Below, piece by piece: positions 2,066 through 60,657 of a stretch of DNA of 64,000 nt. Position 1 is the stretch's first letter. Each line of letters starts with the position of its first letter. Source of the stretch: a virus; the IMG/VR virus record IMGVR_UViG_3300009506_000001, positions 1 through 64,000 of that record, one strand, 5' to 3'. The position numbers and the translations under genes were made by a program. The notes below the pieces were generated by a model. That model saw only the letters and a program-made list of their open reading frames with translations. It was not told where the DNA came from and searched no databases.

Positions 2066-2343
2066 TATACTTTTCCTAGTTTGCGTAGTGCGAGACTTAC
2101 ATCGTGCCACCAACTGGATTCAATGTAGTACTCCATGCTAATGCCTTCTTCGTATGCTGAACCAGGCTCGTCTCCAAAATCTCGGTCACACCCTGCACAG
2201 AAGTTATCCCGGTAGTGCAACTCTATTGGTATGAGAGCTTCCATCAGCTCGTTAAGAGCTTCAAGGTTCGGTGTGTCTTCGATGCCCCGTTTGACCTTTT
2301 TAAGGTATGCCTGTGCAATCTCAATGTCTTGCTTGATACTCAT
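2065..2343 (-). CDS. Hypothetical protein
   Basis: 92 aa, overlaps neighbours at both ends. Confidence 0.65.
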   Translation of the reverse strand: MSIKQDIEIAQAYLKKVKRGIEDTPNLEALNELMEALIPIELHYRDNFCAGCDRDFGDEPGSAYEEGISMEYYIESSWWHDVSLALRKLGKV

Positions 2344-2738
2344 ATTCCCCTCATTGCTCGCTCGTAAGCATCGTCATCGCTATTTTCAACTGTGATTGAA
2401 CATTCGCCTTCATTCAGCACTGCTGTCCGATACTCAATTCTGACCTCGGGATAGTAACCATCGTGCGGAATAACATTCCAGCCATGGCCATCATATTGAA
2501 GCACGCCCTCTGGAACCTCTGGAACATGCCAACGCATGTTGGTTTCAAGCTCAGCTACCCGCTTTTTCAGTTTGTCGATTTCATCCTGCAACGGATTACT
2601 TACATCGATAAAAGAGTTGGCCTGTGCAGCAAGCACGCTACCCGAAAACAGTGGTTGGACGGTGCCGGGTTCGTCTGTTAGTTTTTCTTTCTTTTCCAAA
2701 ATCTGATCATACCACCACTGTGGTTCTCCACATGCCAT
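2340..2738 (-). CDS. Hypothetical acidic protein ending DDDAYERAMRGI
   Basis: SD AAGGAG upstream; C-terminus shared with ORF 58634..58870. Confidence 0.7.
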   Translation of the reverse strand: MACGEPQWWYDQILEKKEKLTDEPGTVQPLFSGSVLAAQANSFIDVSNPLQDEIDKLKKRVAELETNMRWHVPEVPEGVLQYDGHGWNVIPHDGYYPEVRIEYRTAVLNEGECSITVENSDDDAYERAMRGI

Positions 2739-6872: not shown

Positions 6873-7882
6873 TACTCTTCCCCATGTTCTTCTACGGTGT
6901 TTTTCTTATTTATCCGCTGAGGATTACGAACCCGCTCTGTTACCCTTTTTCGTGCGAGCATTTCCTCAAGCATCGTCTTTTGCAGCTGTTTTTCTGGTGT
7001 TAGCTCGGCGGCGGTACTCATTTTTGCAAGCATCGCCTCAATTGCTTCCACTGTCATACCACCAACGTCTGTGGGTGAACCGTGCTCGTCTTTTATCTGC
7101 TCATCGAGTCCCATTATTTCTTCGTACACGTGCATTGCCCCTGATACCTTCTCGTGCTTTTTCTCACGGTCAAGTACTGCAATGTTGGCACCAATCGTTA
7201 GAATAACAGCGAGTGGATCAAATGCAAATATGATTAGGAAGATCATATATTTCGTTGCATCATCAATGTCACGGTTGAACGCCTTTGCAATGAAAACGAT
7301 TGGTCCTGTGTGTGCTTCCTGCTGGACGATCGTTGTTCGGAGTTTGCCTTGCTCTGTTGTTACTTGCGTATATTCAGATGCCAGACGTTCCAGTTCAGTA
7401 CGAATACGCTGACGGTCTGCCTCTTGTGACTCACGCATTCTTCTACGGTTCGTACTGTGGTTGCCTGGAATAGCATCAATCTGTGCATCCATTCGAGCCA
7501 CTTCAGCGTTCAATTCAATCTTTTGTTTGTCGATTTCTGCTTTGCGGCTGCTGTAAGTCTCAATCTGAGTCTGCATCTGGTCAAGAGGTAAAACGTCCTG
7601 CTGGTATGCAGATGAGAGGAAACCAAAGATACCAGCCGATGTAATCATCATCAGGACAAGGATGGCTGCAATTAGATAAGTCTTCATGAGGAAACCTATC
7701 TTGTTCCAGTAGCGATACACATAAGATGCTGCAACCAGTTTACCTGCCTCGAGAGAGGAGGCCATTATGACAACTGGCCAGAACGTGCCAGCAAAGATTT
7801 GTGCCAATCCGTAGATCGAGAAGAACGCTGCCGAACTTGCGATCGACAGCGTGGATAGAATTAGGATTGTGATGAAAAACAT
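6872..7882 (-). CDS. Membrane protein with 3 N-terminal TM helices, coiled coil and a further TM
   Basis: Hydrophobic segments, LEAGKLV, TSAGIFGFLS, FDPLAV; late promoter upstream. Confidence 0.8.
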   Translation of the reverse strand: MFFITILILSTLSIASSAAFFSIYGLAQIFAGTFWPVVIMASSLEAGKLVAASYVYRYWNKIGFLMKTYLIAAILVLMMITSAGIFGFLSSAYQQDVLPLDQMQTQIETYSSRKAEIDKQKIELNAEVARMDAQIDAIPGNHSTNRRRMRESQEADRQRIRTELERLASEYTQVTTEQGKLRTTIVQQEAHTGPIVFIAKAFNRDIDDATKYMIFLIIFAFDPLAVILTIGANIAVLDREKKHEKVSGAMHVYEEIMGLDEQIKDEHGSPTDVGGMTVEAIEAMLAKMSTAAELTPEKQLQKTMLEEMLARKRVTERVRNPQRINKKNTVEEHGEE

Positions 7883-29285: not shown

Positions 29286-29314
29286 ATTATCTGAAATTTT
29301 GGGGTAAAAGTCAA
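29286..29314 (-). promoter_or_regulatory. Sigma70-type promoter
   Basis: TTGACT-N17-GATAAT upstream of the HD-kinase gene. Confidence 0.7.
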
Positions 29315-30867
29315 CCGAAAACCATTGGCATTGGGTCGTCGTCTTCAGGGTTAGACGATCCTTGGCCGTTGTTGTCAAACCAGTTGTCTTCTTTGAATGC
29401 ATATAGTTTGTTGTATGCATTTTGGTCATAGGATGAAATCTCTTCCAATATACGCATAATGATCAATATGGCCGAGATGCTGTCATCTGTGCCACCAATC
29501 TGGGCGGCGTAGGAACCAGACTTACGAACGTACATTTTCAACTCTTTCAGTGTCATAACAGAGTTGAGTTTTAGGTTTCCTTTCTCAACCATCTCCTTAA
29601 AGTTGACACAAGCACGCATTTTGGACTTAGCTGTGGTCGTCATGCCACGACGAGTTGCTCCTGGCTCAGAAACAAATTCGGCTGTTTCGATTGGCTGCTC
29701 ATCGGCTTCATACAATGATATAATACCTTCGCCAACACCATTATTCTCAACTGAGAAGTACACTTGTCCACCTTCCTTCTCTATGTAACGAATGACATTC
29801 TTTAAGACATTGTAGACGTGTGGAGGCGACATGGAGTTCGAGCGGAACTCAGCGACCTGTTCCATATTTGGAAACTGGAAGACAGTGATGACACTAAAGT
29901 CTTCACCGGAACCCGTAGACGGATCGACCCCCACCAAGTAAGTAGACTCACTTTCAATCTTCTTCCAAAAGTGAACCTCACGTAGATCAAACTTAGGTGG
30001 CAGGTTGTCTGCCAGTTCAAATCTCTTAGATTCGTTTGCAAGCCATATCGAGTCAAGCAAGAGAGCATCGGACGACAGGAAGATGCACTCGAACTCCTGC
30101 TCCCACTTTCTCTGCCCAAACTTACCGATCATTGCTTCCTTGAATGCCTCATCACGGCCAGGTGGAGCATCCCACTTAACCCACTTCGAATGGAAACCGT
30201 TGACACCAATTTCAGCACCTCGCCAAAGCTGTGCAAAGAGATTCATATCACCATTTGGTGTAGAGGTAATAATACAGTCACCACCTGTAGACAAGGTAGG
30301 TGCGATAGCGGCCCAGAACTCTTCCGCAATGTTAGGAGCAACGAAAGCAAACTCGTCAAGATATAGGAGGGAGATGGACATGCCTCGACCAGAGTCTTCT
30401 GACGTTGCTGTTGATTCTATTCTTGATCCGTTATCAAAGCCAACGCTGTGTTTGTTCCATCCATCATCGACAACACCAGGCTTTAACCACATTGGTAAGT
30501 GCTCATATGCGTAACGAATACGAGCAATCATTTCTTTAGCACCTTTCTCTTTGTTGGATGCTATAAGGATCGTCTTATCAAAATTGAAGATTGAGTACCA
30601 AAGGAGGTACGCAGAGGCAGTTGTTGATTTACCAGTCTGTCGAGCGGAAAGGATGATGTTATCTCTGTTCTTCCAGTACATCGTTATCAGCTCACGCTGA
30701 TACTCATATAGCTCAAAGTGAACAGCACCTTTCGTTGGATGAACGATCTTTACATACTTCTCGATGAAGTATAGAGGATTCTCCATACACTTCTCAAACT
30801 CGAGAACCTGTTCAGGAGTGAATTCCGTTTCTTCGTGGGCCTTCTTGATAAACCTATTCTTTGCCAT
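29311..30867 (-). CDS. Terminase large subunit (T4 gp17-like)
   Basis: LYEYQ, ARQTGKS, YLDEFAF, TSTPNG, QEFEC, GVDPS, VENN, DDS. Confidence 0.95.
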   Translation of the reverse strand: MAKNRFIKKAHEETEFTPEQVLEFEKCMENPLYFIEKYVKIVHPTKGAVHFELYEYQRELITMYWKNRDNIILSARQTGKSTTASAYLLWYSIFNFDKTILIASNKEKGAKEMIARIRYAYEHLPMWLKPGVVDDGWNKHSVGFDNGSRIESTATSEDSGRGMSISLLYLDEFAFVAPNIAEEFWAAIAPTLSTGGDCIITSTPNGDMNLFAQLWRGAEIGVNGFHSKWVKWDAPPGRDEAFKEAMIGKFGQRKWEQEFECIFLSSDALLLDSIWLANESKRFELADNLPPKFDLREVHFWKKIESESTYLVGVDPSTGSGEDFSVITVFQFPNMEQVAEFRSNSMSPPHVYNVLKNVIRYIEKEGGQVYFSVENNGVGEGIISLYEADEQPIETAEFVSEPGATRRGMTTTAKSKMRACVNFKEMVEKGNLKLNSVMTLKELKMYVRKSGSYAAQIGGTDDSISAILIIMRILEEISSYDQNAYNKLYAFKEDNWFDNNGQGSSNPEDDDPMPMVFG

Positions 30868-31352: not shown

Positions 31353-31790
31353 TCACCTGAATATTTCCCTTTCTGTTAGGACCCTAAACTTCATCCCATA
31401 TTTATCACAGAATTGTTGTGCGGCTTGCCACTTTGCCATGTTTACGGCGTACTGCACATCTTCATAAAGTCGGTTCTTTGAGTTGCGAGAACGAGAGCGT
31501 TTGGTTTGGCTATGTGGCTTGACTTCCCAGACTTCCTGTATCTGTTGTCCAGCCTTGTTACGAAAAAGGACCCAGTAGTCCGGAAAGTACCTGTGTACAC
31601 GGTTGTCTGTTGGTTTCAGGTAGGGAATAACCAGCTCTTCAGACGACCACTTCAGAATGTTGGGATTGTTATCCAGGAACTGGTGTGTTTTCAGTTCCCA
31701 TGAGGACATATAGCGAATCTTCATTGGATCGCCAACGTACTTTTCTGGATGTTTTAGTTGATACCAACCTTGCCGAAATCTAGAAGCCAT
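31353..31790 (-). CDS. Head completion nuclease (T4 gp4-like)
   Basis: PEKYVGD, YMSSWE, WSSE, HRYFPD, EVKP, KWQAA. Confidence 0.9.
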   Translation of the reverse strand: MASRFRQGWYQLKHPEKYVGDPMKIRYMSSWELKTHQFLDNNPNILKWSSEELVIPYLKPTDNRVHRYFPDYWVLFRNKAGQQIQEVWEVKPHSQTKRSRSRNSKNRLYEDVQYAVNMAKWQAAQQFCDKYGMKFRVLTEREIFR

Positions 31791-48394: not shown

Positions 48395-49201
48395 TTATTC
48401 GACCTTACCGAATTTATTCTTTGCACGAAGAGCAAATTCAATCTCGTTCTGTCTTTCAAACTCTGCGGAACCTTTCTTGTGAGGACCAGACTTCTTGAGT
48501 TTTGCAAGCATTGACTTTAGCTCTGCTTCGGTCTTGCCTTTGTACTTGCCCTTTTCCTTGGTGTCCATTTTACCTGGGTGTGCCCACTTTTCGGCAAGCT
48601 CTTTACCATCACGGGAACCGTGAACGTTGCGAGCCTTATCGGTGCGACGATCTTCTTTCATGCCGTCACCGTGAGGGCTCTTTGTACCCATTGGAGCATC
48701 CTTTAGGCCCCTAGCACCTTTGTCTTCGGACTTGGCACCACGGGAATTATCCTTGTGAGGAACATCTTTGTAAGCGTCACCACACTTCTCGTCGGCACCA
48801 GACTTGCTATCTGCCTTTAGCTTACGAGCGTCTTTCTTGACCTTCTCATAGCCATATCCACGAGAGTTATCCTTGTGAACAACTTTCTTGTATGCTTCAC
48901 CACGATCACGATTCATCATAGACTTGTCGTGGGACATTGCGGACTCCTTCATTTTTTCTTTCTTTTCTTCCTTCTCGTCGTCCTCGTCTTCGTCCTCATC
49001 CTCGTCTTCGTCTTCGTCGTCTTCTTTCTCTTCCTTCTCGCCCTTTTCTTCCTTCTCTTCTTTCTCGTCTTCCTCTTCCTTTTCTTCACCTAGGACGATT
49101 CCACGAGTCTTAGAAGCAAGATAGTCATGAAGGTGCTTGGATGCAGCATCCGTGTCATCAGAGATGATTGCTTCAAGCATAGCACGTAGATGTTTCTTCA
49201 T
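48395..49201 (-). CDS. Highly charged prohead core protein (gp67/gp68-like)
   Basis: D/E/K runs, repeated AYK.V.HKDNSRG; lies between portal and protease. Confidence 0.7.
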   Translation of the reverse strand: MKKHLRAMLEAIISDDTDAASKHLHDYLASKTRGIVLGEEKEEEDEKEEKEEKGEKEEKEDDEDEDEDEDEDEDDEKEEKKEKMKESAMSHDKSMMNRDRGEAYKKVVHKDNSRGYGYEKVKKDARKLKADSKSGADEKCGDAYKDVPHKDNSRGAKSEDKGARGLKDAPMGTKSPHGDGMKEDRRTDKARNVHGSRDGKELAEKWAHPGKMDTKEKGKYKGKTEAELKSMLAKLKKSGPHKKGSAEFERQNEIEFALRAKNKFGKVE

Positions 49202-50305: not shown

Positions 50306-52045
50306 TTATTGTAGACCGCCTGCTTCTGCGGCTCCTGGACCACCTGCTTCGGCTTGTGCGGCTTCTATGCCAGCTCCACCACCTGCTTCGCCACCTGCAC
50401 CGGCCTCCATTCCCATTTCACCGCCAGGTGCTCCTAAAGGTGCTGGACCACCCATTGCGGACATGCCGCCAACGCCACCAAGTGCACCCATTTCCTCACC
50501 AGTACCATACAACATAGGCAGATCACCAGGCTTTTGGTTATCTGGGTCCATGCCACGCTCTTCACGCAGCATACGCTCGTTCATAATAATCTCTTCGTCT
50601 TCCATCTGTAGGTAACGAGACAGAATGAAACGCTTAGACAGATATGGAATCGAATCTGCAGAACCATACGTACCAAGTAATGCAGCATCCGTCTCCTGCT
50701 GACGATATACACCAAAGTTTGTTGGGTCTGGAAGACGAATTCGATATAAAGCCTCATCAATAATGATGTTGGAACGGCGAAGATATTTCTTGAACTCTGC
50801 ATCAAGAACCTGTTCTATATAGCCCTGTAGTCGCTGAATGTAAAGAGCAAAACGTAACTCCTGGATGTAAGCAACACCAACTTTACCATCATTAAAGACT
50901 GCACCTTCTGCACCTTCTGTCATGTAGGAAGTAGGTATACGAAGACCACGCCATACTTTCTTCTGGAAGTATTCCAAGTCAGCCAATTCACCAAGGCCCT
51001 GACCACCAGGCAATGTATCAACTTTGGAACCACGACCATCAGCACGCTGAGCAAAGAAGAAGTCTTCACTCATTGATTGTGGATTGTAAACAGAATCTAC
51101 GTTCTGCTGGCCACCATTGATGGTTGGAACCTTCTTCTGTTTGATTTCATTCTTGATCTGCTCCAGGTACGTCTTAACACGCTGTGGAGGCATTTTACCA
51201 ACGTCAATATAGAAAACACGACGTTCTGGTGCACGCTGAATACGATAAATGATAACAGCATCTTCGAGCAGTTCCTTTTGCTTGTGAGCACGATAGACTG
51301 GTCCAAGAACAGAGTCACCAAATGGTGCTGCATCGGACATGTCATCATTTAGTGTGAAGCGAACGATTTCATCTGATGGAACAAGCTCTGTGCTAATGTC
51401 TGAGGAGGCACTTGAGACGGGTACACCATAGCTTGCCTTTACTTTCTTTGAATCTGTTTTAACCTGCCAACCGAGAACATTTGTAACATCATTTTCATCA
51501 ACTAAGGCACCAACAATGTTCTTTGGATGAATGTACTGCCACTTGACTGTTGGTTCTTGTTTAATTTTTCGGAAGAAACAATCCCCATACTTTGCGGTCA
51601 TTCGGGAAACTTTAAACAGCCGTGTCTCCCAGTCGTGAATCTGGCTCCAATACTTCAGAGCAGCTTTTAGGGTCAATACTGTGGAGTTTGAAACTCGCTC
51701 TTCCTTTTCGGCGTCAACCTGAACGATTAGGCACTCGTCGGTTTTGGGTTCGTTACCCGTCATTTCTTCGGCAATTGTGTCAAGGGCACGAGCGACCTCA
51801 ACGTCGTTGTCCATAAGATCGTATTCACGGTAACGGGTGAGACGAGAAGCAGAACCCTGAACAAGACGCTGATACCAGCTGAAATTACCATACGCACCTT
51901 GGTCACCAATTGACTGATTGTCGGTAACTTTCGTGACGTTAGGCTTTGGTTCAACCAATTTGTAGAAACCAGTCCACTTTGCGTGGTTACTGGTTCGTCT
52001 TGGCTGTTGTTCCTGAGCTGAAAAGTCTTGTGCTAGTTCTGGCAT
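50306..52045 (-). CDS. Portal protein (T4 gp20-like)
   Basis: LEDAVIIYRIQRAPERRVFYIDVGKMP, EDFFF, VDTLPGG, QELRF; TATAAATA at 52068-75. Confidence 0.95.
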   Translation of the reverse strand: MPELAQDFSAQEQQPRRTSNHAKWTGFYKLVEPKPNVTKVTDNQSIGDQGAYGNFSWYQRLVQGSASRLTRYREYDLMDNDVEVARALDTIAEEMTGNEPKTDECLIVQVDAEKEERVSNSTVLTLKAALKYWSQIHDWETRLFKVSRMTAKYGDCFFRKIKQEPTVKWQYIHPKNIVGALVDENDVTNVLGWQVKTDSKKVKASYGVPVSSASSDISTELVPSDEIVRFTLNDDMSDAAPFGDSVLGPVYRAHKQKELLEDAVIIYRIQRAPERRVFYIDVGKMPPQRVKTYLEQIKNEIKQKKVPTINGGQQNVDSVYNPQSMSEDFFFAQRADGRGSKVDTLPGGQGLGELADLEYFQKKVWRGLRIPTSYMTEGAEGAVFNDGKVGVAYIQELRFALYIQRLQGYIEQVLDAEFKKYLRRSNIIIDEALYRIRLPDPTNFGVYRQQETDAALLGTYGSADSIPYLSKRFILSRYLQMEDEEIIMNERMLREERGMDPDNQKPGDLPMLYGTGEEMGALGGVGGMSAMGGPAPLGAPGGEMGMEAGAGGEAGGGAGIEAAQAEAGGPGAAEAGGLQ

Positions 52046-52092
52046 TGTGATTCCTATAGGTTTTCGGTATTTATACTCTGGAATATCGTCGC

Positions 52093-53850
52093 TTACTTGT
52101 TCTTGCCTTTACCCTTACCAATGACCTGTGGTTTAGTGTTTGCAACAACCTTTCCTTGCATCTTCAGCTGCTCTTCTAGTTTGGCTAGTGTCTCTTTCAG
52201 TATCTGGATGCTTTGCTGGTCTGTCATTCGCTGTTGTTCAGTATCAGTTGCTAGCCGTTCATTCAATGTAGCGAGTGTCACATTCACGTCCCCAATTTTT
52301 TGGGCGGTTTCCTGTGTTGCTTTAATTGCATCATCACGCTGTTGGGCTGCCGCTCTTTCTTGTTCTTCCTGTGTTGTAAAATATCCTTTAAGTGCTCCAA
52401 TGACTCCCTTCTCAGCGACGTCAGAGCCAACCTTCAAAGCAGCCACTGCTGCCCCTGCCTTCAATGCAAACGTTCCAACATCTTTGATCATGCCAGGAAC
52501 TTCCGGTACCCAGCTCTTTTCCATAACAGCACTGAGTTTGTCAAGAGCACTTGCAACTCCTGCAAGGTTCTCCGTGTTCTTACCCATTATTTTGATGTTA
52601 TCACGTTGGGCTTGAGTGATCTTGCCTCCTGCTTCCCCTAGCTTTGTTGCAAATACATCTGGAAGCTTATCTAGACCAGTCTTCATTGCTATCATGCTGA
52701 CAGATAGCTCTTTACCAAGTCCCTGTGTGCGAGACTCCTTAGCTAATGTTTGGAATTGGCCGAGAGCTTTTGCCATCGTCTGACGCTCTTGCTCAGTTGC
52801 TCGATCACCTTTGCGGTAAATGTTTGCAACCTCTTGAGCATTCTCAATACCCAGAGCAGCCATACCAGCCTGCATTTTCGCTGCTTCCTTAATACGATCG
52901 AGAGGCCCCTTACCACTTAACTTCTCAAGAGCTTTTGATGCAGCCTCTGCTTGCTCCGTCGACATACCCATTGCCTTCAGGTTCTTGTAGCGATCCTGAA
53001 TTTCTAGTAGTATTTGTAGGCGACGTTTTTTATCAGCGGCACTCATCAAACGGGTACGAACTTCATCCTCTTTTACCATGCCTTTGAGGTAATCTCTGGA
53101 CTCTTCATACGTGATACCCATCTTCAACAAATCATCGTTTGTCCTATCGAGTCGCTTTCCAAATTCTCCATATAGATCACTTGCCTTTCCACCTGAGTAG
53201 GTAAGAAGATTCATCATCTCAGTCTGATGCTTCATGGCTTCTACATGATCACCAATTCGATCAAAGTATTTGCTCTGCTGCGATGCCAACTTATCTTGCC
53301 ATTGACTGAAGCCCCCCATGTTGATAGATGCAATACGGGAAGTTTTATTAAACTCATTTAGTTCCTTGATTGAAACACCAAGCATTTGGAATGTTTTTGC
53401 TGTACGATCAGCGTAGGCCTTAAAGCCCGTTGATGCACCTTTCAAACCATCCTGCAATTCAGAAAAATCACCGTCCAGTGCCTTTGCAATTGCCGATTGT
53501 AGGCTACCAGCATCCGAAAATGCCTCCATGCTGCCATCTAGTGCTTGCACACCACCAGTTATGCCCGATCGGAACTCATCCATAAGCATACCAATGCCTC
53601 GGTTTCCAGTGAGGTTCCGAATCGAATCCATTGTGTCAGAAAGGTAACCAGTGAATTTCTTAGTTGCTGTTGTGGCTTTTTGGAAGGCAGTAGTATTCTG
53701 GGTTACTGCATTTGTGTTGTCACCACGGCCACCACCTCCGCCACCACCAGCAGCTGCTCCGTTGCCACCAGCCGCATTACGGAATGCTTCCTCAATCTGG
53801 CCGATTGCTTGACGGGAATAACTTTGTATAATTACTGTTTGGTCAGTCAT
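52093..53850 (-). CDS. Tape-measure-like helical protein
   Basis: A/G/K/M-rich helical 585 aa, divergent from the gp26-like gene; CATAAATA at 53881-88. Confidence 0.6.
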   Translation of the reverse strand: MTDQTVIIQSYSRQAIGQIEEAFRNAAGGNGAAAGGGGGGGRGDNTNAVTQNTTAFQKATTATKKFTGYLSDTMDSIRNLTGNRGIGMLMDEFRSGITGGVQALDGSMEAFSDAGSLQSAIAKALDGDFSELQDGLKGASTGFKAYADRTAKTFQMLGVSIKELNEFNKTSRIASINMGGFSQWQDKLASQQSKYFDRIGDHVEAMKHQTEMMNLLTYSGGKASDLYGEFGKRLDRTNDDLLKMGITYEESRDYLKGMVKEDEVRTRLMSAADKKRRLQILLEIQDRYKNLKAMGMSTEQAEAASKALEKLSGKGPLDRIKEAAKMQAGMAALGIENAQEVANIYRKGDRATEQERQTMAKALGQFQTLAKESRTQGLGKELSVSMIAMKTGLDKLPDVFATKLGEAGGKITQAQRDNIKIMGKNTENLAGVASALDKLSAVMEKSWVPEVPGMIKDVGTFALKAGAAVAALKVGSDVAEKGVIGALKGYFTTQEEQERAAAQQRDDAIKATQETAQKIGDVNVTLATLNERLATDTEQQRMTDQQSIQILKETLAKLEEQLKMQGKVVANTKPQVIGKGKGKNK

Positions 53851-53972
53851 TTATTAATTCTCTTTGAATGGAATCCTTTATATTTATGGTTGGTATCTCC
53901 CCGAAGTTTGCGATGTAAATAATTATTGAGGAGGATGTAAATATCCTGCACTTACTTTACGAGGAAAACTAA

Positions 53973-54758
53973 ATGTCTGAACCAAATACCCAAAATCCAC
54001 TATTACAACGTGCTCACATTCCAGGGCAGACGTTTGCATTGCCGTCTGGAGGTATCTTCTACACGCACGGAGAGTTGGATGAAAGTGTTGAGAATGGTGA
54101 GGTTGTGGTTCATCCTATGGTCACTATGGACGAGATCATTATGAAGACCCCCGACAAGATCCTTAACGGTGTAGCTATCTCAGAGGTGTTCAAACGCTGC
54201 ATACCACAAGTCCTGAAGCCAAACCAGCTCCTTGCTCGTGACGTTGATTTTCTAGTCGTATGTCTTCGCAAGGTTACATATGGAAATCAGATTGAGCTAA
54301 GCTACACCCACAACTGCAAAGATGCCCAGGAACACTCTTATCTCGTTCCTCTCGATCCACTCATTTCTCACGCTAAGAAGATTGATGCTGCATCGGCCAA
54401 ACAAGACTACACTCTCACGTTGCCTAATCAGCAGGTGGTGAAATTGCTACCACCGAAGTATGAGCAGATGCTACATTTCTATCAATCCTACAATGCAAAT
54501 GCAACGCAGGAGGAGGCTCATCGTCGGCTAATGGAAACGACGTCATCGTTGATCGAATCCGTAGATGGAATTACAAACCGTGACAATATTGTAGAATGGG
54601 CAATGACAATCCCTGCAGGTTACACAAAGGCCATCGGAGATCGTGTTGCTAGTGTTAGCACGTGGGGCCCGGAATTGAAGTCAAAGATTAAGTGTAGGGA
54701 CTGCGAAGAGGAAGTGGAGGTTGATATCTCACTTAACCCTATGCATTTTTTTTCATAA
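53973..54758 (+). CDS. Baseplate hub assembly protein / tail chaperone (T4 gp26-like)
   Basis: LPSGGIFY, PMVTMDE, DVDFLVVCLRKVTYG, C..C..E, ends HFFS. Confidence 0.75.
   Translation: MSEPNTQNPLLQRAHIPGQTFALPSGGIFYTHGELDESVENGEVVVHPMVTMDEIIMKTPDKILNGVAISEVFKRCIPQVLKPNQLLARDVDFLVVCLRKVTYGNQIELSYTHNCKDAQEHSYLVPLDPLISHAKKIDAASAKQDYTLTLPNQQVVKLLPPKYEQMLHFYQSYNANATQEEAHRRLMETTSSLIESVDGITNRDNIVEWAMTIPAGYTKAIGDRVASVSTWGPELKSKIKCRDCEEEVEVDISLNPMHFFS
54746..54754 (+). other. Candidate -1 ribosomal frameshift site (T8 run)
   Basis: CAT TTT TTT TCA TAA; the -1 frame is open into ORF 54794..54976. Confidence 0.6.
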
Positions 54759-54793
54759 CGCTGAAAACAGGAACTCATGAAGACATCATCAAG

Positions 54794-54976
54794 ATGTTTA
54801 ATGAGATGGACAGGTCAGTTAAGAACCTTCTCAAATCTGTCATCCAATTGGTTTACTTTATGAACGGCTCAATACAATACGACGACATGATGTGGAGAAC
54901 GCCCTTTGAAAGGGATCTAATGGAAGAGTTTGTTATAGAGCACTTGAACGCAAAGGCCAAAGCATTGAAACGATAG
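54794..54976 (+). CDS. gp51-like baseplate assembly protein, possibly a frameshift extension
   Basis: YFMNGSIQYDDMMWRTPFER; no SD before the ATG. Confidence 0.65.
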   Translation: MFNEMDRSVKNLLKSVIQLVYFMNGSIQYDDMMWRTPFERDLMEEFVIEHLNAKAKALKR

Positions 54977-55000
54977 GATCTGGTTTTCAGCGATCCAACA

Positions 55001-55027
55001 AAAACGGCCCGAAGGGCCGTTTTCTTT
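55001..55027. terminator. Bidirectional terminator
   Basis: aaaacggccc-gaa-gggccgtttt between convergent genes. Confidence 0.8.
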
Positions 55028-55227
55028 TAGTAGTAGTTGGTAGGTTTCCTGCCTTGTGCCTTTTGGTACTGTGCATCGATCCAGGCACCAAGACGAGGGC
55101 CACTATTGGAAACACGAGTGTTCAGTGCCTTTTCAGTCTCCGACTTGCCCCTGAAAAAGACTTTATCGATTGTTTGGCCAACAATGCAGATCACAATCAG
55201 CCAAAGCATGTAGCCCATAAAAGTCAT
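55027..55227 (-). CDS. Small early membrane-anchored protein
   Basis: N-terminal TM; SD AGGAG; TTGACC-N16-TATAAT at 55252-79. Confidence 0.65.
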   Translation of the reverse strand: MTFMGYMLWLIVICIVGQTIDKVFFRGKSETEKALNTRVSNSGPRLGAWIDAQYQKAQGRKPTNYY

Positions 55228-55282
55228 ATCAATCTCCTATTCAATGACGATATTATACCCTAATTGGTAGAAAGGTCAACAA

Positions 55283-56887
55283 TTAGATGGGTTTGTATGC
55301 GTCTTTCCACCACTGAGGAATGCGGTTTCGTGTCTGATTGTACAGATATCCCCACGATTCATCAAGTATATACACAACTCCCCAGTCATCCTTTGATCTG
55401 ACCACACGGCCTCCTCCCTGTATGATATCAATCAAGGCACGTCGTTGGTACCATTCCTTCGACATCTGCATGCGTCGTTTGATCCACTGGTCACCCATGT
55501 AGCCAAATGGCACCTTTGCAAAGATGGCAAATCTAGCCAAGTCACCATGAAGGTCAAGTCCCTCAGTTATGCTCGGTGAAATCAGAATCGATGGTTTCTT
55601 CAAACCAGTGAACTGACGGATAACAGCATTGCGGTCATCTCCGCTGTCAGGGTTGTGGTGGATAATCTGATGTTCAATTGTACCATCGAGTTGTTCCACT
55701 AGCCATTTGCTAATTGCAAAGTTGGCAGTATGGATGATTCCAGACTCTCCTTCGTGAAAGGCTGCGATGTCTCGAATCTTAGTCAGCATGTTTTGACGTT
55801 CGATCTCCTTTTCATCATCCTGATTTCGCCACGATGCATTCATCTTCATAACAGGAGAGTAGAGCACATGGCGATTCTCAACAGGGAACTCGGAATCAAG
55901 TGAAAGGAATGCAGTCTCTTCTGGAGGCAGTCCCAAGTCAGCACAGAAGCCTTCCTTGTTCAGTATCGTGGACGACATGAAAAGGAACTGATCGGCTTGT
56001 GGCTTCAGTATCTCATGGAAGTTGCGAGCACCTGTCACCTGCTTAAATTTCAACATCATTTTGTCAAACGTAAGCACGTATTCCCGTTCCAGCTGGGAAT
56101 TCATTATGAGGCCGAATTCCATCAGCTCGTCAATGTGGTCTTCTAGTGACGAGTACTCACGTATCTTTTTAATTTCAGATCTACTCAGTTCGTTGCCGCC
56201 TTTATCAAGCAACGGTTCAACTTCGTGAAACATGCTGGTCAGGGCTTCTTCCGCTTTGGGTAAGTACGTCTGCTTTACCCAATCACGTGCAGAGAGGAGG
56301 TTGTGTTGGGAAAGGTCGGGGAACTCTACACCAAATTTATCGCAGCGTTTCTTTGATACTGAAACAGCGTTGAATTCCACAAGGTGCTCTTCAACGGTAT
56401 GACATTCATCAAGGATCATAACCCTGCGTTTATCTTTTTCAGTAAACACTGGTGTAAATGCAAACAGGAGAAGGGCCAGCTTGTAATTGAAAACAGTATT
56501 AGGTGAGGATTTAGCTCTACCCACTGCCATGCTAAAAGGGCAGCTGTCACACCTAGGCTTGACTAGGCTTCCAATGTCGCATGTGGTGTTCTTAGAACGG
56601 CACTCGTAGTTTCCTTTTCCGTACAGAGATGCAATTAGCGATGCATCAAAGGACCGCTCATATTGCTCTTGTAAAATACGTTGAGGTGTCAGTATAAAAG
56701 AGCTTCCTCGTTCATCTTTAAGCCAACGGGAGAAACAAATGCCGATAGCGGATTTGCCCACACCTACCGGTGCTTCGAGTAAGAGGTATTTGGCCTTTTG
56801 TGTGGCCAGCCACTCCAATGCCTCTACCTGCTTGGGTCTTGGCTCGGAGTCTAGGGGGAAGTAATCTAAGATATTTTTCTCGTTCAT
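55283..56887 (-). CDS. DinG/XPD-family helicase
   Basis: PRPKQ, APVGVGKS, Cys cluster, DECH, MSST, EGLD, KVPF, QGGGRVVRSKDDWG, LDE; likely start MNEKN. Confidence 0.88.
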   Translation of the reverse strand: MNEKNILDYFPLDSEPRPKQVEALEWLATQKAKYLLLEAPVGVGKSAIGICFSRWLKDERGSSFILTPQRILQEQYERSFDASLIASLYGKGNYECRSKNTTCDIGSLVKPRCDSCPFSMAVGRAKSSPNTVFNYKLALLLFAFTPVFTEKDKRRVMILDECHTVEEHLVEFNAVSVSKKRCDKFGVEFPDLSQHNLLSARDWVKQTYLPKAEEALTSMFHEVEPLLDKGGNELSRSEIKKIREYSSLEDHIDELMEFGLIMNSQLEREYVLTFDKMMLKFKQVTGARNFHEILKPQADQFLFMSSTILNKEGFCADLGLPPEETAFLSLDSEFPVENRHVLYSPVMKMNASWRNQDDEKEIERQNMLTKIRDIAAFHEGESGIIHTANFAISKWLVEQLDGTIEHQIIHHNPDSGDDRNAVIRQFTGLKKPSILISPSITEGLDLHGDLARFAIFAKVPFGYMGDQWIKRRMQMSKEWYQRRALIDIIQGGGRVVRSKDDWGVVYILDESWGYLYNQTRNRIPQWWKDAYKPI

Positions 56888-57190
56888 GCAAACACCATAC
56901 ACCAACTCAGACCCAATGACAAGAGATAAAATACTTCGGCCTTCGGCCTCGTATTTTATCTCTCGCATTAGATTTCTAAACTAATCGGCGTTCTTAATAT
57001 AATGTACAATTCCCCCGTTTTGGGGTTCAAGATAAATTCCCCAGCAGTACTCAAAATCGGGTTCGCACCGCAGACGTCTACGCCCATAACGAAGTCTTTA
57101 AGCACGAGTCTGCCTGACGGCATTTAGACCAATGTCGTGCGTTTAACGAAATCTCCGTTCGCTGTAGGATTTGTGTGTAAACACTGCTAA

Positions 57191-57535
57191 TTAAATAGCC
57201 AGTGCTGAACCCTGTTCGATTAAGTCGGTAGCTCTTCTGCTTTCCGTAGCAGGTTTGTTATTTTCTATGATTTGGAAGCTTGTCTGGGTTTTTGTCTGGA
57301 AGTAGTCTAGTAGTTCTTCGTCTGTGTAAACATTGTTGGGATATACATCTTTCTTGTCAATTTTCAATCGGGACCAAAAAATTCGGAAACCTTCAGATTT
57401 TTCGTAGATTGAAATTTTTTCGGGGAGGGAGAGTTCTGATTGATGGGAGGAAAAATAATTGAGAATAGAAGACCACTGGATTAAATCACTAAAGTCAGCT
57501 TCTAAGGCTGTCCGAATATTATTCGGGATGGTCAT
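57191..57535 (-). CDS. Hypothetical protein
   Basis: SD AAGGAG; TATAAATA at 57570-77 and TTGCCA-N17-TATAGT at 57585-613 upstream. Confidence 0.6.
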   Translation of the reverse strand: MTIPNNIRTALEADFSDLIQWSSILNYFSSHQSELSLPEKISIYEKSEGFRIFWSRLKIDKKDVYPNNVYTDEELLDYFQTKTQTSFQIIENNKPATESRRATDLIEQGSALAI

Positions 57536-57615
57536 TTCATCTCCTTTACGTTTCTGCCTAAATCGGAACTATTTATAACTCCCTACTATAACCCATCGAA
57601 AAAATTTTGGCAACG

Positions 57616-57813
57616 CTACGAGCGTAAACTTGAAGTCGGTCTGTGCACACCTCGGCCCCAAATTCTGAAGCCACCAGCAGTGGAGACAATAATACGCTCC
57701 AGCACGTCCTTCTTCTCACAATATGGACAATCTGTGAGCTTGTCATCTTTCATGCTCTGCTGTGTTTCGAATACTTCGTTACAATCGTGACACTTGTATG
57801 TGTACGTAGCCAT
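57616..57813 (-). CDS. FmdB-family zinc-ribbon protein
   Basis: YTYKCHDC...CPYC...RII. Confidence 0.85.
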   Translation of the reverse strand: MATYTYKCHDCNEVFETQQSMKDDKLTDCPYCEKKDVLERIIVSTAGGFRIWGRGVHRPTSSLRS

Positions 57814-58101
57814 TTAGTCATCTCCTAGTAGTTTCATTGCATCGTCATAATTGGTTATCTGATCACGTACTCGTTCCCGTACTTTAGCAACAATATCAGG
57901 AACGGCCGCAGGTTGTCCGTCACGGATAGGTAGGTACAGAACCTCAAATCCACGCTTGTTAAACAAAGGACCTACGCTTTCCTTTACTTTCTCCAGGTAG
58001 TCCCTGACACGCTGTGGAGGCATTTTACCAACGTCCACGTACATTACTATCAGGTCCATCTCTGGATCGTATTCGCTCAAGTTTAACATTTCAACCTGCA
58101 T
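57814..58101 (-). CDS. Small protein containing a portal-like motif
   Basis: YVDVGKMPPQRVRDYLEKVK versus portal YIDVGKMPPQRVKTYLEQIK; start may be 58089. Confidence 0.7.
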   Translation of the reverse strand: MQVEMLNLSEYDPEMDLIVMYVDVGKMPPQRVRDYLEKVKESVGPLFNKRGFEVLYLPIRDGQPAAVPDIVAKVRERVRDQITNYDDAMKLLGDD

Positions 58102-58585
58102 TGTGTTTGTCCTCTGCGACCTTTGCTATCCAATATGCATCTGTAAGGTCGTATAATCCTGTTGTTTTCTTCACCCCTAATTTTAAAAACTGTTTTTGGG
58201 CGTTTTCGGGTAATGCCTCATATAGCGCTTCCTTCTTGGCTTTACCATCATCTGTCGCAAATTTCTTTACGGTCTTTGGGGAGACGATTTCAATTGGAAA
58301 TTGTCCCCTGCAATGAAATCTAAGTTTGTTGATGATAACAAACTGTAGTCCAGCTAAGTCACGTGTTGCGTCGCCTCGCATTCCAAATGCCAACCCTTCA
58401 ATGGCAATAACGTCCGGTTTGTGCACATCCGCAAGCATCTGAATATGTGTACCGATCCAATTTGCTCGTTCGTGCACATCCATTGCTTTCGGAGACTTGA
58501 GGGCTTCGGTATGAACCAACTCATCATCTCTCAAAAGAACAAGCCCAGTGCAACTGTAACTTTGGTCTATTCCTAATACTTTCAT
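58091..58585 (-). CDS. RuvC-like Holliday junction resolvase
   Basis: VLGIDQS..TG, IAIEG, PKTVKKFAT..GKA.K, DLTDAY. Confidence 0.88.
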   Translation of the reverse strand: MKVLGIDQSYSCTGLVLLRDDELVHTEALKSPKAMDVHERANWIGTHIQMLADVHKPDVIAIEGLAFGMRGDATRDLAGLQFVIINKLRFHCRGQFPIEIVSPKTVKKFATDDGKAKKEALYEALPENAQKQFLKLGVKKTTGLYDLTDAYWIAKVAEDKHNAG

Positions 58586-58633: not shown

Positions 58634-58870
58634 TTATATGCCTTTCATCGCACGGTCGTAAGCGTCGTCAGAAGACTCTTCGTCATCCTCAATCACGGGT
58701 AGTTCTTCAACAAAGAAGTCATTTTCTTCGATTAGAATCTCTTCTAGGATCTCGAACAGGTCATCTAGTGACTCAACGATCTCTTCGACTGTTTTGAAAT
58801 CATCCTGCTGCTGTTGTGGCTGTGCCATAACAAGGTTCCAGCCCCGCATTCTCCAATAATCGTATTCCAT
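58634..58870 (-). CDS. Small acidic protein ending DDAYDRAMKGI
   Basis: TAATG coupling to gp46; SD GGAGG. Confidence 0.7.
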   Translation of the reverse strand: MEYDYWRMRGWNLVMAQPQQQQDDFKTVEEIVESLDDLFEILEEILIEENDFFVEELPVIEDDEESSDDAYDRAMKGI

Positions 58871-60657
58871 TAGTCCTCCTTGATGTAACTGAATCCCTTT
58901 GTCATTTGTATTGTCATCACATTATCAAAGGCAGCGTTTATTTCGTCTCTGTGTGAGATCACATATAGTGATAGTTTCTCATCACGGGACTTCCGTTTTA
59001 GCATTTTAGCAGCAGCCTGGACACCAACAGCGTCTAGACCAACATCTAGCACTTCGTCCAGCATGCATACATTGATCTTTGTGTGCAACTGCTGCAGGAC
59101 ATCTCTGAACGCAAGCGATAGTGCCAAATTAACACGAGCACGTTGGCCGTTCGAAAGGTTACCGAAGTCTAGCGGATGACCGAACTGGTTAATCTCAGCG
59201 GTCAACTCATGCGTAAACTCAACAGTATGTGGCAGACCAAGATCACTCAAATACTGTTGCAGTTTCTTATTTAGGTACGGAATGTTCTTGTTCAGTAGAG
59301 CCTTACGGACAAAACTATCCTTCTTTGTCAACAGCTTATGCAAAAACTTTTGGTGATCAATAAGTTTCACGAGAGCATTGGTTTCATCGTGCACAACTGG
59401 ATCCAGTTCAACGGCCTCAAGTTCCTCGAGAGGTTCGATGTATGGATTGACGGACTCCTTGAGATCCTCAATGCGGGTTTCAATGTTAGCAGCTTGGCTT
59501 TTGATTTCCAAAAGCTCATTCAAATTGGATACGGTGATCGTTTCTTTCACGGCAGCCAATTGCTTGGTGAGATCGTCTGTCTCAGCATCGTACGTAGCGA
59601 GGCCTTCTTCGGCTATCTTAACCGCTTCGGTCTTCACTGCAATCTTGTCGTGCAGTTCCTCTATCTTTTCGTCTGCGTCAGCGAATTTCTGTAAGCAGTA
59701 AGGACACTTCTCATCTTGGAGGTGTCCAAGTTCCTTTTGGTACTTGGCAAGGTCTCTTTCGATGCGTTTTAATTCTGTTGATACTTCTCGCTGCTGGGCA
59801 ATGTTGGCGTTAATGTTACTCTCGAGAATATTCTTTCTCTCGTGAGCCTCACGCTCTGCCTCAACATCAACATCCGCCACCTTAGCAAGTTTCGCTTCTA
59901 ATGAGGCAATTTGTTTTTCATTTTGTTGCTCCCAACCAACAACACGCTGCTTGGCAGCCTTTAACTGCTGTGAATGTCTTTCGTGCTCACGCTCAAGTTG
60001 CGTCTGTTTGGCCTTGACGATCTCAAGCCTCTGCTCATTTTCCTTGATGGTAGTCTTGAGTGCCTCAGCCTTTTCGGTCAGGGTTGTGAGGTCAAATAAT
60101 TCCTCAATGATTCGGGTCTGGCAAGCCTGCGTTGGATGCCTTACAGGCAAATCCAAGAACGGAATGTGGATTGCAGAGAAGACTACAATGCGGCTGAATA
60201 GCTCGTGTGGAATACCAATGACCTCTTCGATGGCCTTGTTTGTATTGGACACGCTATCACGGGTGCGTTCGTCTTCGTCTGTGAAATCGTAAGATCCTTC
60301 TTTCACATAGTATTTGACATAGTTGCCAGCAGCGTAAGACTTTGACTTACGGACACGCTTGATGTGGTAATATGTACCGTCCTTTTCAAAGGTAACAGTG
60401 ACTTCCATGTTCTTTTTGTTGATGTTGTTGACAAGGTTGTCGAGCGAGATGTTGGACAGCGGCTTACCGTAAACAGCGTAAGCGAGTGCGTTGATGATGA
60501 CAGTTTTACCAACACCATTAGCACCAGTACCGCCAGATGTGTTATCAAGGTCCTCACCAACAATAAGTGTTGTGCCATTACGATCCAGTTGGACGACCGT
60601 CGTGTTATTACCGTACGACATGAAGTTTCGCATTGTGATGGAGATGAATCTAATCAT
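58870..60657 (-). CDS. Rad50/SbcC-like ATPase (T4 gp46-like)
   Basis: RNFMSYGN, NGVGKT, CPYC hook, LSNGQ, LDEVLD, ISH. Confidence 0.95.
   Translation of the reverse strand: MIRFISITMRNFMSYGNNTTVVQLDRNGTTLIVGEDLDNTSGGTGANGVGKTVIINALAYAVYGKPLSNISLDNLVNNINKKNMEVTVTFEKDGTYYHIKRVRKSKSYAAGNYVKYYVKEGSYDFTDEDERTRDSVSNTNKAIEEVIGIPHELFSRIVVFSAIHIPFLDLPVRHPTQACQTRIIEELFDLTTLTEKAEALKTTIKENEQRLEIVKAKQTQLEREHERHSQQLKAAKQRVVGWEQQNEKQIASLEAKLAKVADVDVEAEREAHERKNILESNINANIAQQREVSTELKRIERDLAKYQKELGHLQDEKCPYCLQKFADADEKIEELHDKIAVKTEAVKIAEEGLATYDAETDDLTKQLAAVKETITVSNLNELLEIKSQAANIETRIEDLKESVNPYIEPLEELEAVELDPVVHDETNALVKLIDHQKFLHKLLTKKDSFVRKALLNKNIPYLNKKLQQYLSDLGLPHTVEFTHELTAEINQFGHPLDFGNLSNGQRARVNLALSLAFRDVLQQLHTKINVCMLDEVLDVGLDAVGVQAAAKMLKRKSRDEKLSLYVISHRDEINAAFDNVMTIQMTKGFSYIKED

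Follow-up and report, generated by a model that had tools for sequence, protein, structure and literature searches.

Why should a phage encode, some distance from its portal gene, a small protein that repeats the part of the portal on which the packaging motor docks? This question is raised by a 95-aa ORF in the 64,000-nt stretch of DNA that was analysed here as a whole and is called the window. The window comes from an uncultured phage and covers the opening 64 kb of an IMG/VR virus record that is 155 kb long and estimated to be 44% complete, and a record of this length and completeness therefore belongs to a giant T4-like phage. The stretch is present in marine-sediment sequencing runs, and no RNA run containing it is listed among them. 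The part of the portal in question is the tip of the clip, which is the dock of the packaging motor and the neck and also the sensing site of at least two bacterial defences.

A short gene carrying the portal clip tip

The portal gene, the short gene and the segments that they share lie in the window as follows.

50306-52045, minus strand: T4-type portal (gp20 homologue), 579 aa, assigned by Pfam Portal_T4 (E 2e-94) and by alignment to T4 gp20 structures; clip-tip residues 277-301 correspond to 51143-51217
51177-51205, no strand assigned: 29-nt exact repeat, copy in the portal gene
57814-58101, minus strand: gene of the 95-aa mini-protein, supported by the ORF list, a family profile and an AF2 model (pLDDT 82)
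57973-58047, minus strand: portal-like segment VMYVDVGKMPPQRVRDYLEKVKESV, mini-protein residues 19-43, seen by BLASTP, by the Pfam Portal_T4 profile (positions 208-231, E 0.01) and by hhalign
58007-58035, no strand assigned: 29-nt exact repeat, copy in the mini-protein gene, taken as the minimum gene-conversion tract

The 29-mer ACACGCTGTGGAGGCATTTTACCAACGTC has exactly two copies in the window, and a 29-nt repeat was matched in 0 of 100 shuffles. On the minus strand it encodes the peptide D-V-G-K-M-P-P-Q-R-V, in frame in both the portal and the 95-aa ORF. A sequence-only reading of this DNA had pointed out the exact 29-nt repeat in the same frame; we confirmed it, and the peptides quoted there were right. 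BLASTP of the portal against the mini-protein gave 16 identical residues out of 25 (E 7e-10), and no DNA or protein likeness between the two genes was found outside the shared stretch. Misassembly, which had been named as another possible source of the repeat, is excluded because both ORFs align at full length to their homologues, and these alignments cross the tract on both sides. Two other features of the portal region were observed. The C-terminus of the portal (50306-50560) is a long low-complexity tail rich in Gly, Ala and Glu, and the adjoining 268-aa ORF (48395-49201, minus strand) contains a long run of Glu, Asp and Lys.

We compared the shared segment with gp20 of T4, in which residues 279-358 form the clip domain (PMC4493910). 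The gp20 tip residues N291, M292, R295 and K296 project from the capsid and touch the terminase gp17, and their mutation abolishes packaging; a 24-residue gp20 peptide (288-311) binds gp17 and inhibits packaging (PMC4493910). After packaging, the partner of the clip domain is the neck protein gp13, and the clip itself forms an inter-subunit three-stranded sheet (PMC4493910). Portal residues 277-301 of the window (VFYIDVGKMPPQRVKTYLEQIKNEI) align to gp20 284-308 (HMMER, structures 3JA7 / 6UZC). This range takes in all of the gp17-contacting residues named above and overlaps the inhibitory peptide. The segment had earlier been placed in or next to the clip region, which was right but imprecise, as the HMMER alignment to gp20 identifies the shared peptide as the docking loop itself plus helix alpha6. 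In the portal of the related 178-kb contig L014 (18738-20423), an intein was observed directly after VYNPHSM, within the clip domain.

The mini-protein gene has a GAGGA Shine-Dalgarno sequence about 8 nt upstream, and its ATG overlaps the stop codon of a RuvC-like gene by 11 nt. A profile of the first 60 residues of the mini-protein was searched against 1.84 billion cluster representatives. The search gave 58 proteins at E<=1e-3, of which 17 had E<=1e-10, and almost all were 66-255 aa long; three long repetitive proteins among the 58 (P0041, P0051 and P0054) were taken to be spurious. A word-based protein search with the mini-protein profile added few members. No match was obtained with blastn and tblastn against GenBank phages, a scan of IMG/VR with the mini-protein profile returned portals only, and a scan of JGI metagenomes with the RGF region gave no confirmed match. 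There is no Pfam or PHROGs family for the mini-protein. From these data, the 95-aa ORF is predicted to be a genuine gene, and its family is one that has not been described before.

An alignment of 46 members (A4), which are 23-58% identical to the protein of the window, has four conserved features: an N-terminal strand with ExLxLSxYDPxxD, the tip [VI]D[VI]GKMPPxR[VA]xxY[LI]xx[VI]K, a strand with RGFxVLY, and the C-terminal tail [YF][DE]xAM[KR]x[VIL]. All four, the tip in the form VGKMPPxR, are present in the mini-protein of the window. G25 is the sole nearly invariant column among all 46 aligned members, and G25, M27, P28 and P29 are invariant in nine closer members. Therefore, no part of the mini-protein is better kept than the tip loop. 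The sequence-only reading had made its case depend on conservation of the motif in homologues, and the motif is indeed conserved, with the tip best kept among the 46 family members.

We then compared the family with portals. By hhalign, the 46-member family matched three portals with a probability of 98.2% (E 4.9e-14) over portal residues 277-393, and in each of about 80 related portals the family HMM matched the clip, with E values of 1e-6 to 1e-10. The register of the hhalign match suggested that the C-terminal tail was derived from the portal segment VYNPQSM; this was set aside as unsupported. The longer members P0012, P0018, P0022 and P0023 add YDPxSxVEDFVFPxxDxRGSKVETL and EDLEYFxKK, which are the remaining clip and the start of the stem helix alpha7. 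In P0025, P0027, P0028, P0029 and further members, the clip-like unit occurs in tandem repeats. The mini-protein is not itself a portal, since it scores 15.0 bits against Pfam PF07230 Portal_T4, below the cut-off of 22.9, and matches only 24 of the 433 profile positions (208-231). These alignments show the predicted mini-protein to be a homologue of one sub-domain element of the portal, comprising the clip strand, the G-K-M-P-P loop and helix alpha6. We found no description of such putative separately encoded copies of the portal clip in Pfam, PHROGs or the literature searched. A short relative of another virion protein was observed in L103, a more distant phage contig. There, the match of a 107-aa ORF (7529-7852, minus strand) to the major capsid profile (Pfam Gp23, E 1.7e-13) is confined to the N-terminal 60 profile positions, and the ORF adjoins P0028 (8001-8582, plus strand), a 193-aa protein with two clip-like units.

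An AF2 model of the mini-protein (pLDDT 82, built with A4) has a strand at residues 2-6, a strand at 17-23, a helix at 29-49, a strand at 53-60 and a helix at 68-92. The clip-like strand, tip and helix are residues 17-49, and the C-terminal helix ends in the tail YDDAMKLL. In fold, the model is strand-helix-strand with an extra N-terminal strand, and the clip is three strands and one helix. A structure search of the Atlas aligned residues 13-74 to a Portal_T4 cluster with a TM score of 0.50. Foldseek of the model against the PDB gave nothing at E<=0.001. A wide search with VIA-align reached a best Z of 5.1, with generic alpha/beta folds only. In BFVD the best E value was 0.026, and a few portals appeared at E 0.07-0.45, none of them significant.

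Gene conversion from the portal gene

Since identical peptides can be written in different codons, we examined codon choice in the two genes. At the 15 identical non-Met residues, the portal and the mini-protein use the same codon 12 times, and 6.1 would be expected from the codon usage of the genome (P ~0.002). Nine of the identical codons stand in a run (P ~7e-4). Homologous mini-proteins and related portals encode the motif with other codons. We considered whether the tract might be a conserved DNA or RNA element and rejected this, as synonymous sites in it are no more conserved than those in the rest of the portal gene among 46 portals. In these 46 distinct portals of the clade, the codon entropy of the tract is 1.32 and the gene mean is also 1.32 (rank 77 of 179), and because the two are equal, the identity is not due to a constraint at the nucleotide level.

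The portals of the closest relatives carry nearly the same tract DNA, and the portal of L024 has 31 consecutive bases in common with the mini-protein gene of the window. The closest homologue of the mini-protein, P0007, which is 58% identical overall, reads IGNMPPKNANRHMQAVRD at the tract, in quite different DNA. Because the portals of relatives nearly match and the DNA of P0007 differs, the tract belongs ancestrally to the portal lineage, from which the mini-protein gene received its copy. These comparisons show the 29-nt identity to be a recent gene conversion of at least 29 nt from the portal gene to the mini-protein gene. The patch is a clean example of gene conversion from a phage structural gene to a short paralogue.

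L014 is the only other genome in which both genes are visible. There, the tip motifs of the portal and the mini-protein differ, and the same codon is used at 4 of 11 identical residues. The conversion is lineage-specific and not universal, since the motifs of L014 differ without an excess of codon identity. Strict co-variation of the mini-protein tip with the tip of the cognate portal, which we also considered, is ruled out by L014.

It had also been proposed that the direct repeat drives deletion or amplification of the 6.8 kb between its copies. This proposal fared poorly. A deletion would remove the N-terminal half of the portal, a baseplate-like gene (Pfam T4_baseplate) and a helicase, and would presumably be lethal; the repeat is unlikely to serve rearrangement because the deletion is taken as lethal. 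No joint deleting the 6.8 kb was found in the contigs of four sediment runs, although contigs cannot reveal rare forms. One Logan contig from the probable source run spans exactly 51179-58034, and we read its ends as a break of the assembly graph at the repeat and not as biological ends.

The RuvC-linked operon and its tail-bearing genes

The mini-protein gene lies in a set of genes on the minus strand. The following features of this operon and of the rest of the window bear on its possible role.

58870-60657, minus strand: gp46/SbcC-like ATPase (Pfam AAA_23/SMC_N), the first operon gene among those examined
58634-58870, minus strand: acidic 78-aa protein (p78) from the ORF list, upstream of RuvC, which ends in DDAYDRAMKGI, the same tail as in the mini-protein
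58091-58585, minus strand: RuvC-like resolvase, 164 aa (Pfam RuvC, 24.1 bits); its stop overlaps the start of the mini-protein gene
57826-57849, minus strand: C-terminal tail Y-D-D-A-M-K-L-L of the mini-protein, common to other small ORFs around RuvC
57616-57813, minus strand: Zn-ribbon protein, 65 aa (Pfam Zn_ribbon_8); its ATG directly follows the stop codon of the mini-protein gene
52068-52075, minus strand: T4-type late-promoter motif TATAAATA, just upstream of the portal
29311-30867, minus strand: large terminase of the T4 gp17 type (Pfam Terminase_6N/6C), a candidate partner of a clip mimic
2340-2738, minus strand: 132-aa ORF ending in DDAYERAMRGI, the only tail-bearing ORF found far from RuvC

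The late-promoter motif has 10 matches on both strands of the window, and 1.6 are expected. None lies within the gp46-p78-RuvC-mini-Zn-ribbon operon. With no copy in the operon and one before the portal, the mini-protein is therefore probably made with the DNA-metabolism genes, and, judged from this one promoter motif, it is probably expressed before the portal. Another copy of the motif was observed at 57570-57577, upstream of a 114-aa ORF. Elsewhere in the window, two genes upstream of the large terminase, lies the gene of a protein with a TnsA-like endonuclease N-terminal domain (31353-31790, minus strand; Pfam PF08722, E 4e-23).

We examined 80 portal loci from related IMG/VR phages, the portals of which are 57-92% identical. 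RuvC was present in the flank of 28 of the 80, and the mini-protein gene in 0 of these 28. In the nearest relative, L024, the portal is 91% identical and gp46 and the Zn ribbon are each 87% identical, and the gene order is gp46, p80, RuvC, Zn ribbon. The mini-protein gene is a clean indel, since the Zn-ribbon gene of L024 begins about 10 nt past the RuvC stop. RuvC is also present without the mini-protein gene in G001 and G002. By this distribution, the mini-protein gene is an accessory gene.

The mini-protein gene was found at or near RuvC in 10 of 10 loci with any flank. The order is RuvC followed by the mini-protein gene in the window, L013, L020, L104 and L105, and the reverse in L003, L021 and L022; in L014/L015 the two are three small genes apart. 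The RuvC of the window is 60% identical to that of L024 (3954-4442), where the flanking gp46 and Zn ribbon reach 87%, and 76% identical to that of the mini-bearing contig L013. In a RuvC tree, seven mini-linked genes fall within one weakly supported half, interspersed with genes that have no mini-protein gene beside them. The presence of the mini-protein gene requires five changes on this tree, and 36 of 500 shuffles do as well. The pattern points to repeated gain and loss of the mini-protein gene, and the identities of RuvC and its neighbours suggest an exchange of RuvC as a cassette, perhaps together with the mini-protein gene.

The tail of the mini-protein is found on other proteins as well. 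The pattern [YF][DE]xAM[KR], often as DDAYDRAMKGI and more loosely as [YF][DE]xAM[KRS]x[IVL], ends about 20 otherwise unlike small ORFs around RuvC. In the last 14 residues, the strict pattern occurred in 21 distinct small ORFs of 4919, nearly all within 1.5 kb of RuvC and on the same strand, and a slightly looser pattern gave 22 distinct ORFs. Three tail-bearing ORFs are in the window, namely the mini-protein, p78 and the 132-aa ORF; other tail-bearing regions are L014 9598-11197, L026 41-771, L021 194-1209, L035 2217-3651 and L056 2321-2958. The common tail looks like a shared docking or targeting peptide.

Several of these ORFs carry pieces of virion proteins. P0064 (L014 10420-10656) has the portal stem/alpha7 segment EDIEYFRRKLLQGLRIP (E 9e-8), and a 243-aa ORF (L021 194-925) has the portal crown segment PYLSKxFxxxxYL (E 2e-4). 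A 129-aa ORF (L026 382-771) is a copy of the C-terminal domain of the tail sheath (Pfam PF17482, E 2e-7), 31% identical to the sheath of its own phage, and retains the extreme C-terminal strand LKPxKxAEFxYIPI. Because tail-bearing ORFs carry several virion pieces, the mini-protein is one case of an array of small proteins in which a fragment of a virion protein is followed by the same tail. The tail that they have in common, and the paralogues built from other virion fragments, suggest that the system is a wider one. No description of such a tail-tagged array was found in Pfam, PHROGs or the literature searched. We speculate, at low odds, that these marine giant phages have a cassette array in the flank of RuvC, in which a virion-protein piece (portal clip, stem or crown, or sheath C-domain) is joined to one tail. 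Its products would be host-sensor decoys or tail-docked adaptors; the copies would be kept up to date by conversion from the structural genes, and conversion in reverse could seed variant epitopes into those genes.

Possible partners of the mini-protein

Taken as a protein, the mini-protein is probably a mimic of the clip and would compete with the portal for a partner that binds there, a reading to which we give a probability of roughly 0.55. It would present the exposed docking loop of the portal as a soluble monomer. As to the partner, we rank first, although only tentatively and at well under even odds, a SpbK-like or Avs4-like immune sensor by which the host would detect the portal clip; the mini-protein would be its decoy. 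The portal clip is sensed by SpbK and Avs4 (PMC12847820). SpbK docks onto the clip domains of the assembled portal, and phages escape it via mutation of the clip helix. Anti-Avs proteins are mentioned in 10.1101/2025.06.06.658234. Made from the DNA-metabolism operon, plausibly ahead of the portal, the mini-protein could occupy such a sensor but would not activate it, as activation takes the multivalent or full-length portal, and gene conversion from the portal would keep its copy matched to the portal. The accessory distribution of the gene, its likely early expression and the other virion fragments of the array favour the decoy. The pieces of portal stem, crown and sheath C-domain also fit general imitations of the virion better than a terminase-specific regulator. 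On the other side, a decoy does not account for the strict linkage to RuvC, the timing is read from one promoter motif, and a clip tip in monomeric form may also capture the terminase of the phage itself, which would be costly. The matching of copies is not universal, as the tips of L014 differ with no excess of codon identity, and for the clip-mimic fold the searches return generic small alpha/beta matches only. If binding to a sensor is true, a fragment of a virion protein would for the first time be known to serve anti-defence; no protein of this kind is described in the literature searched.

The partner could instead be the terminase, or the neck, an alternative that we regard as unlikely. 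Like the gp20 288-311 peptide, the mini-protein would dock where TerL binds the portal. It would be either a holdase, by which unbound terminase is kept in an inactive state until proheads are available, or a weapon directed at related phages in the same cell, whose packaging it would block. In T4 gp20, packaging is lost on mutation of the residues to which the segment corresponds; the segment also overlaps the inhibitory 24-mer, and the tip residues are the most conserved of the mini-protein family. The TerL proteins of the clade are at least 57% identical among the 120 matches listed, and their docking surface may be shared. However, the gene is dispensable in most relatives, and after conversion its tip equals that of the phage's own portal, so the protein would inhibit its own packaging. 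The stem, crown and sheath fragments of the array are, moreover, not terminase contacts. Co-folding of the mini-protein (A4) with TerL (A7), in a run without controls, gave a score of 0.00 and weighs neither way. If binding to the terminase is true, the mini-protein would be a natural regulator or inhibitor of packaging. Several TerL homologues of the clade were observed to bear intein/LAGLIDADG domains (Pfam PF14528).

The linkage that the decoy leaves unexplained is the basis of a partnership with RuvC, for which we also see only a small chance. The portal clip may be a docking site of the resolvase, and the mini-protein, translated together with RuvC, would be a soluble clip that chaperones, restrains or targets RuvC; its tail may be the RuvC-binding peptide of an adaptor set. 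The mini-protein gene lies beside RuvC in either order, or three small genes away, in every locus with any flank, its start overlaps the RuvC stop, and small tail-bearing ORFs are found almost only within 1.5 kb of RuvC. There is also a precedent in T4, since its endonuclease VII is portal-bound; the association with gp20 is established (Golz and Kemper 1999, as cited in PMC10893049 and PMC9958956). However, RuvC is unrelated to endonuclease VII, and most RuvC genes of the clade have no mini-protein gene. The five gains or losses on the RuvC tree, equalled in 36 of the 500 shuffles, also speak against a partnership. The flank of RuvC is a variable hot spot, and the adjacency may reflect where accessory genes accumulate or duplicate. 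If binding to RuvC is true, junction resolution would be linked to packaging in phages without endonuclease VII.

It is rather improbable that the mini-protein has no mimic function and is a small protein of another function that has an old beta-alpha unit in common with the portal, with the 29-nt identity as a neutral conversion patch. The short tract and the generic small alpha/beta folds returned by the searches would fit such a by-product. However, the tip loop is kept better than any other part across the 46 members, despite their identities of 23-58% to the protein of the window, and at least three other virion-protein pieces recur in the array.

Least probable is an assembly cap, in which fragments with inter-subunit interface elements (clip strand, stem helix, sheath C-terminal strand) would cap unassembled subunits and prevent premature or aberrant oligomers of the phage itself or poison the assembly of a competitor: the inter-subunit sheet of the clip, the C-terminal strand retained by the sheath-derived paralogue and the variety of structural proteins represented agree with it, but the most conserved part of the mini-protein is the exposed tip loop and not the strand, and the distribution of the gene is accessory.

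The preferred reading, a clip mimic that may be a decoy of a host sensor, has counterparts among known proteins. Phages have anti-defence proteins of the mimic type, such as the DNA mimic Ocr and the nucleotide sponges. In these, a host sensor is occupied by an imitation of its ligand, as is proposed for the mini-protein. Satellites encode hijackers of packaging and capsids, such as the SaPI protein Ppi, which binds TerS, the PICI homologues of capsid proteins, and Sid of P4. Like the mini-protein, these proteins are small and accessory; they target packaging or assembly, and some do so by a likeness to parts of the machinery involved. However, they act against a helper phage, whereas the mini-protein gene sits in the phage itself and copies its own portal. 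With endonuclease VII on gp20 of T4, the locus has in common that a junction resolvase is tied to the portal and packaging motor; here, the gene of a resolvase is tied to a copy of the portal clip, the enzyme has a RuvC fold, and the link is known from the genome only. The nearest comparison is the T4 gp20 clip (279-358; PDB 3JA7) and its 288-311 peptide, with which the mini-protein shares the strand, the G-x-M-P loop and the helix, aligned residue by residue. In contrast to them, it is a natural, separately encoded 95-aa protein, a candidate terminase binder known from sequence, which has its own N-terminal strand, RGF strand and C-terminal tail and is without the wing, stem and crown. Satellite imitation of packaging parts and mimic anti-defence proteins are known kinds, and what is new is the undescribed family of the mini-protein.
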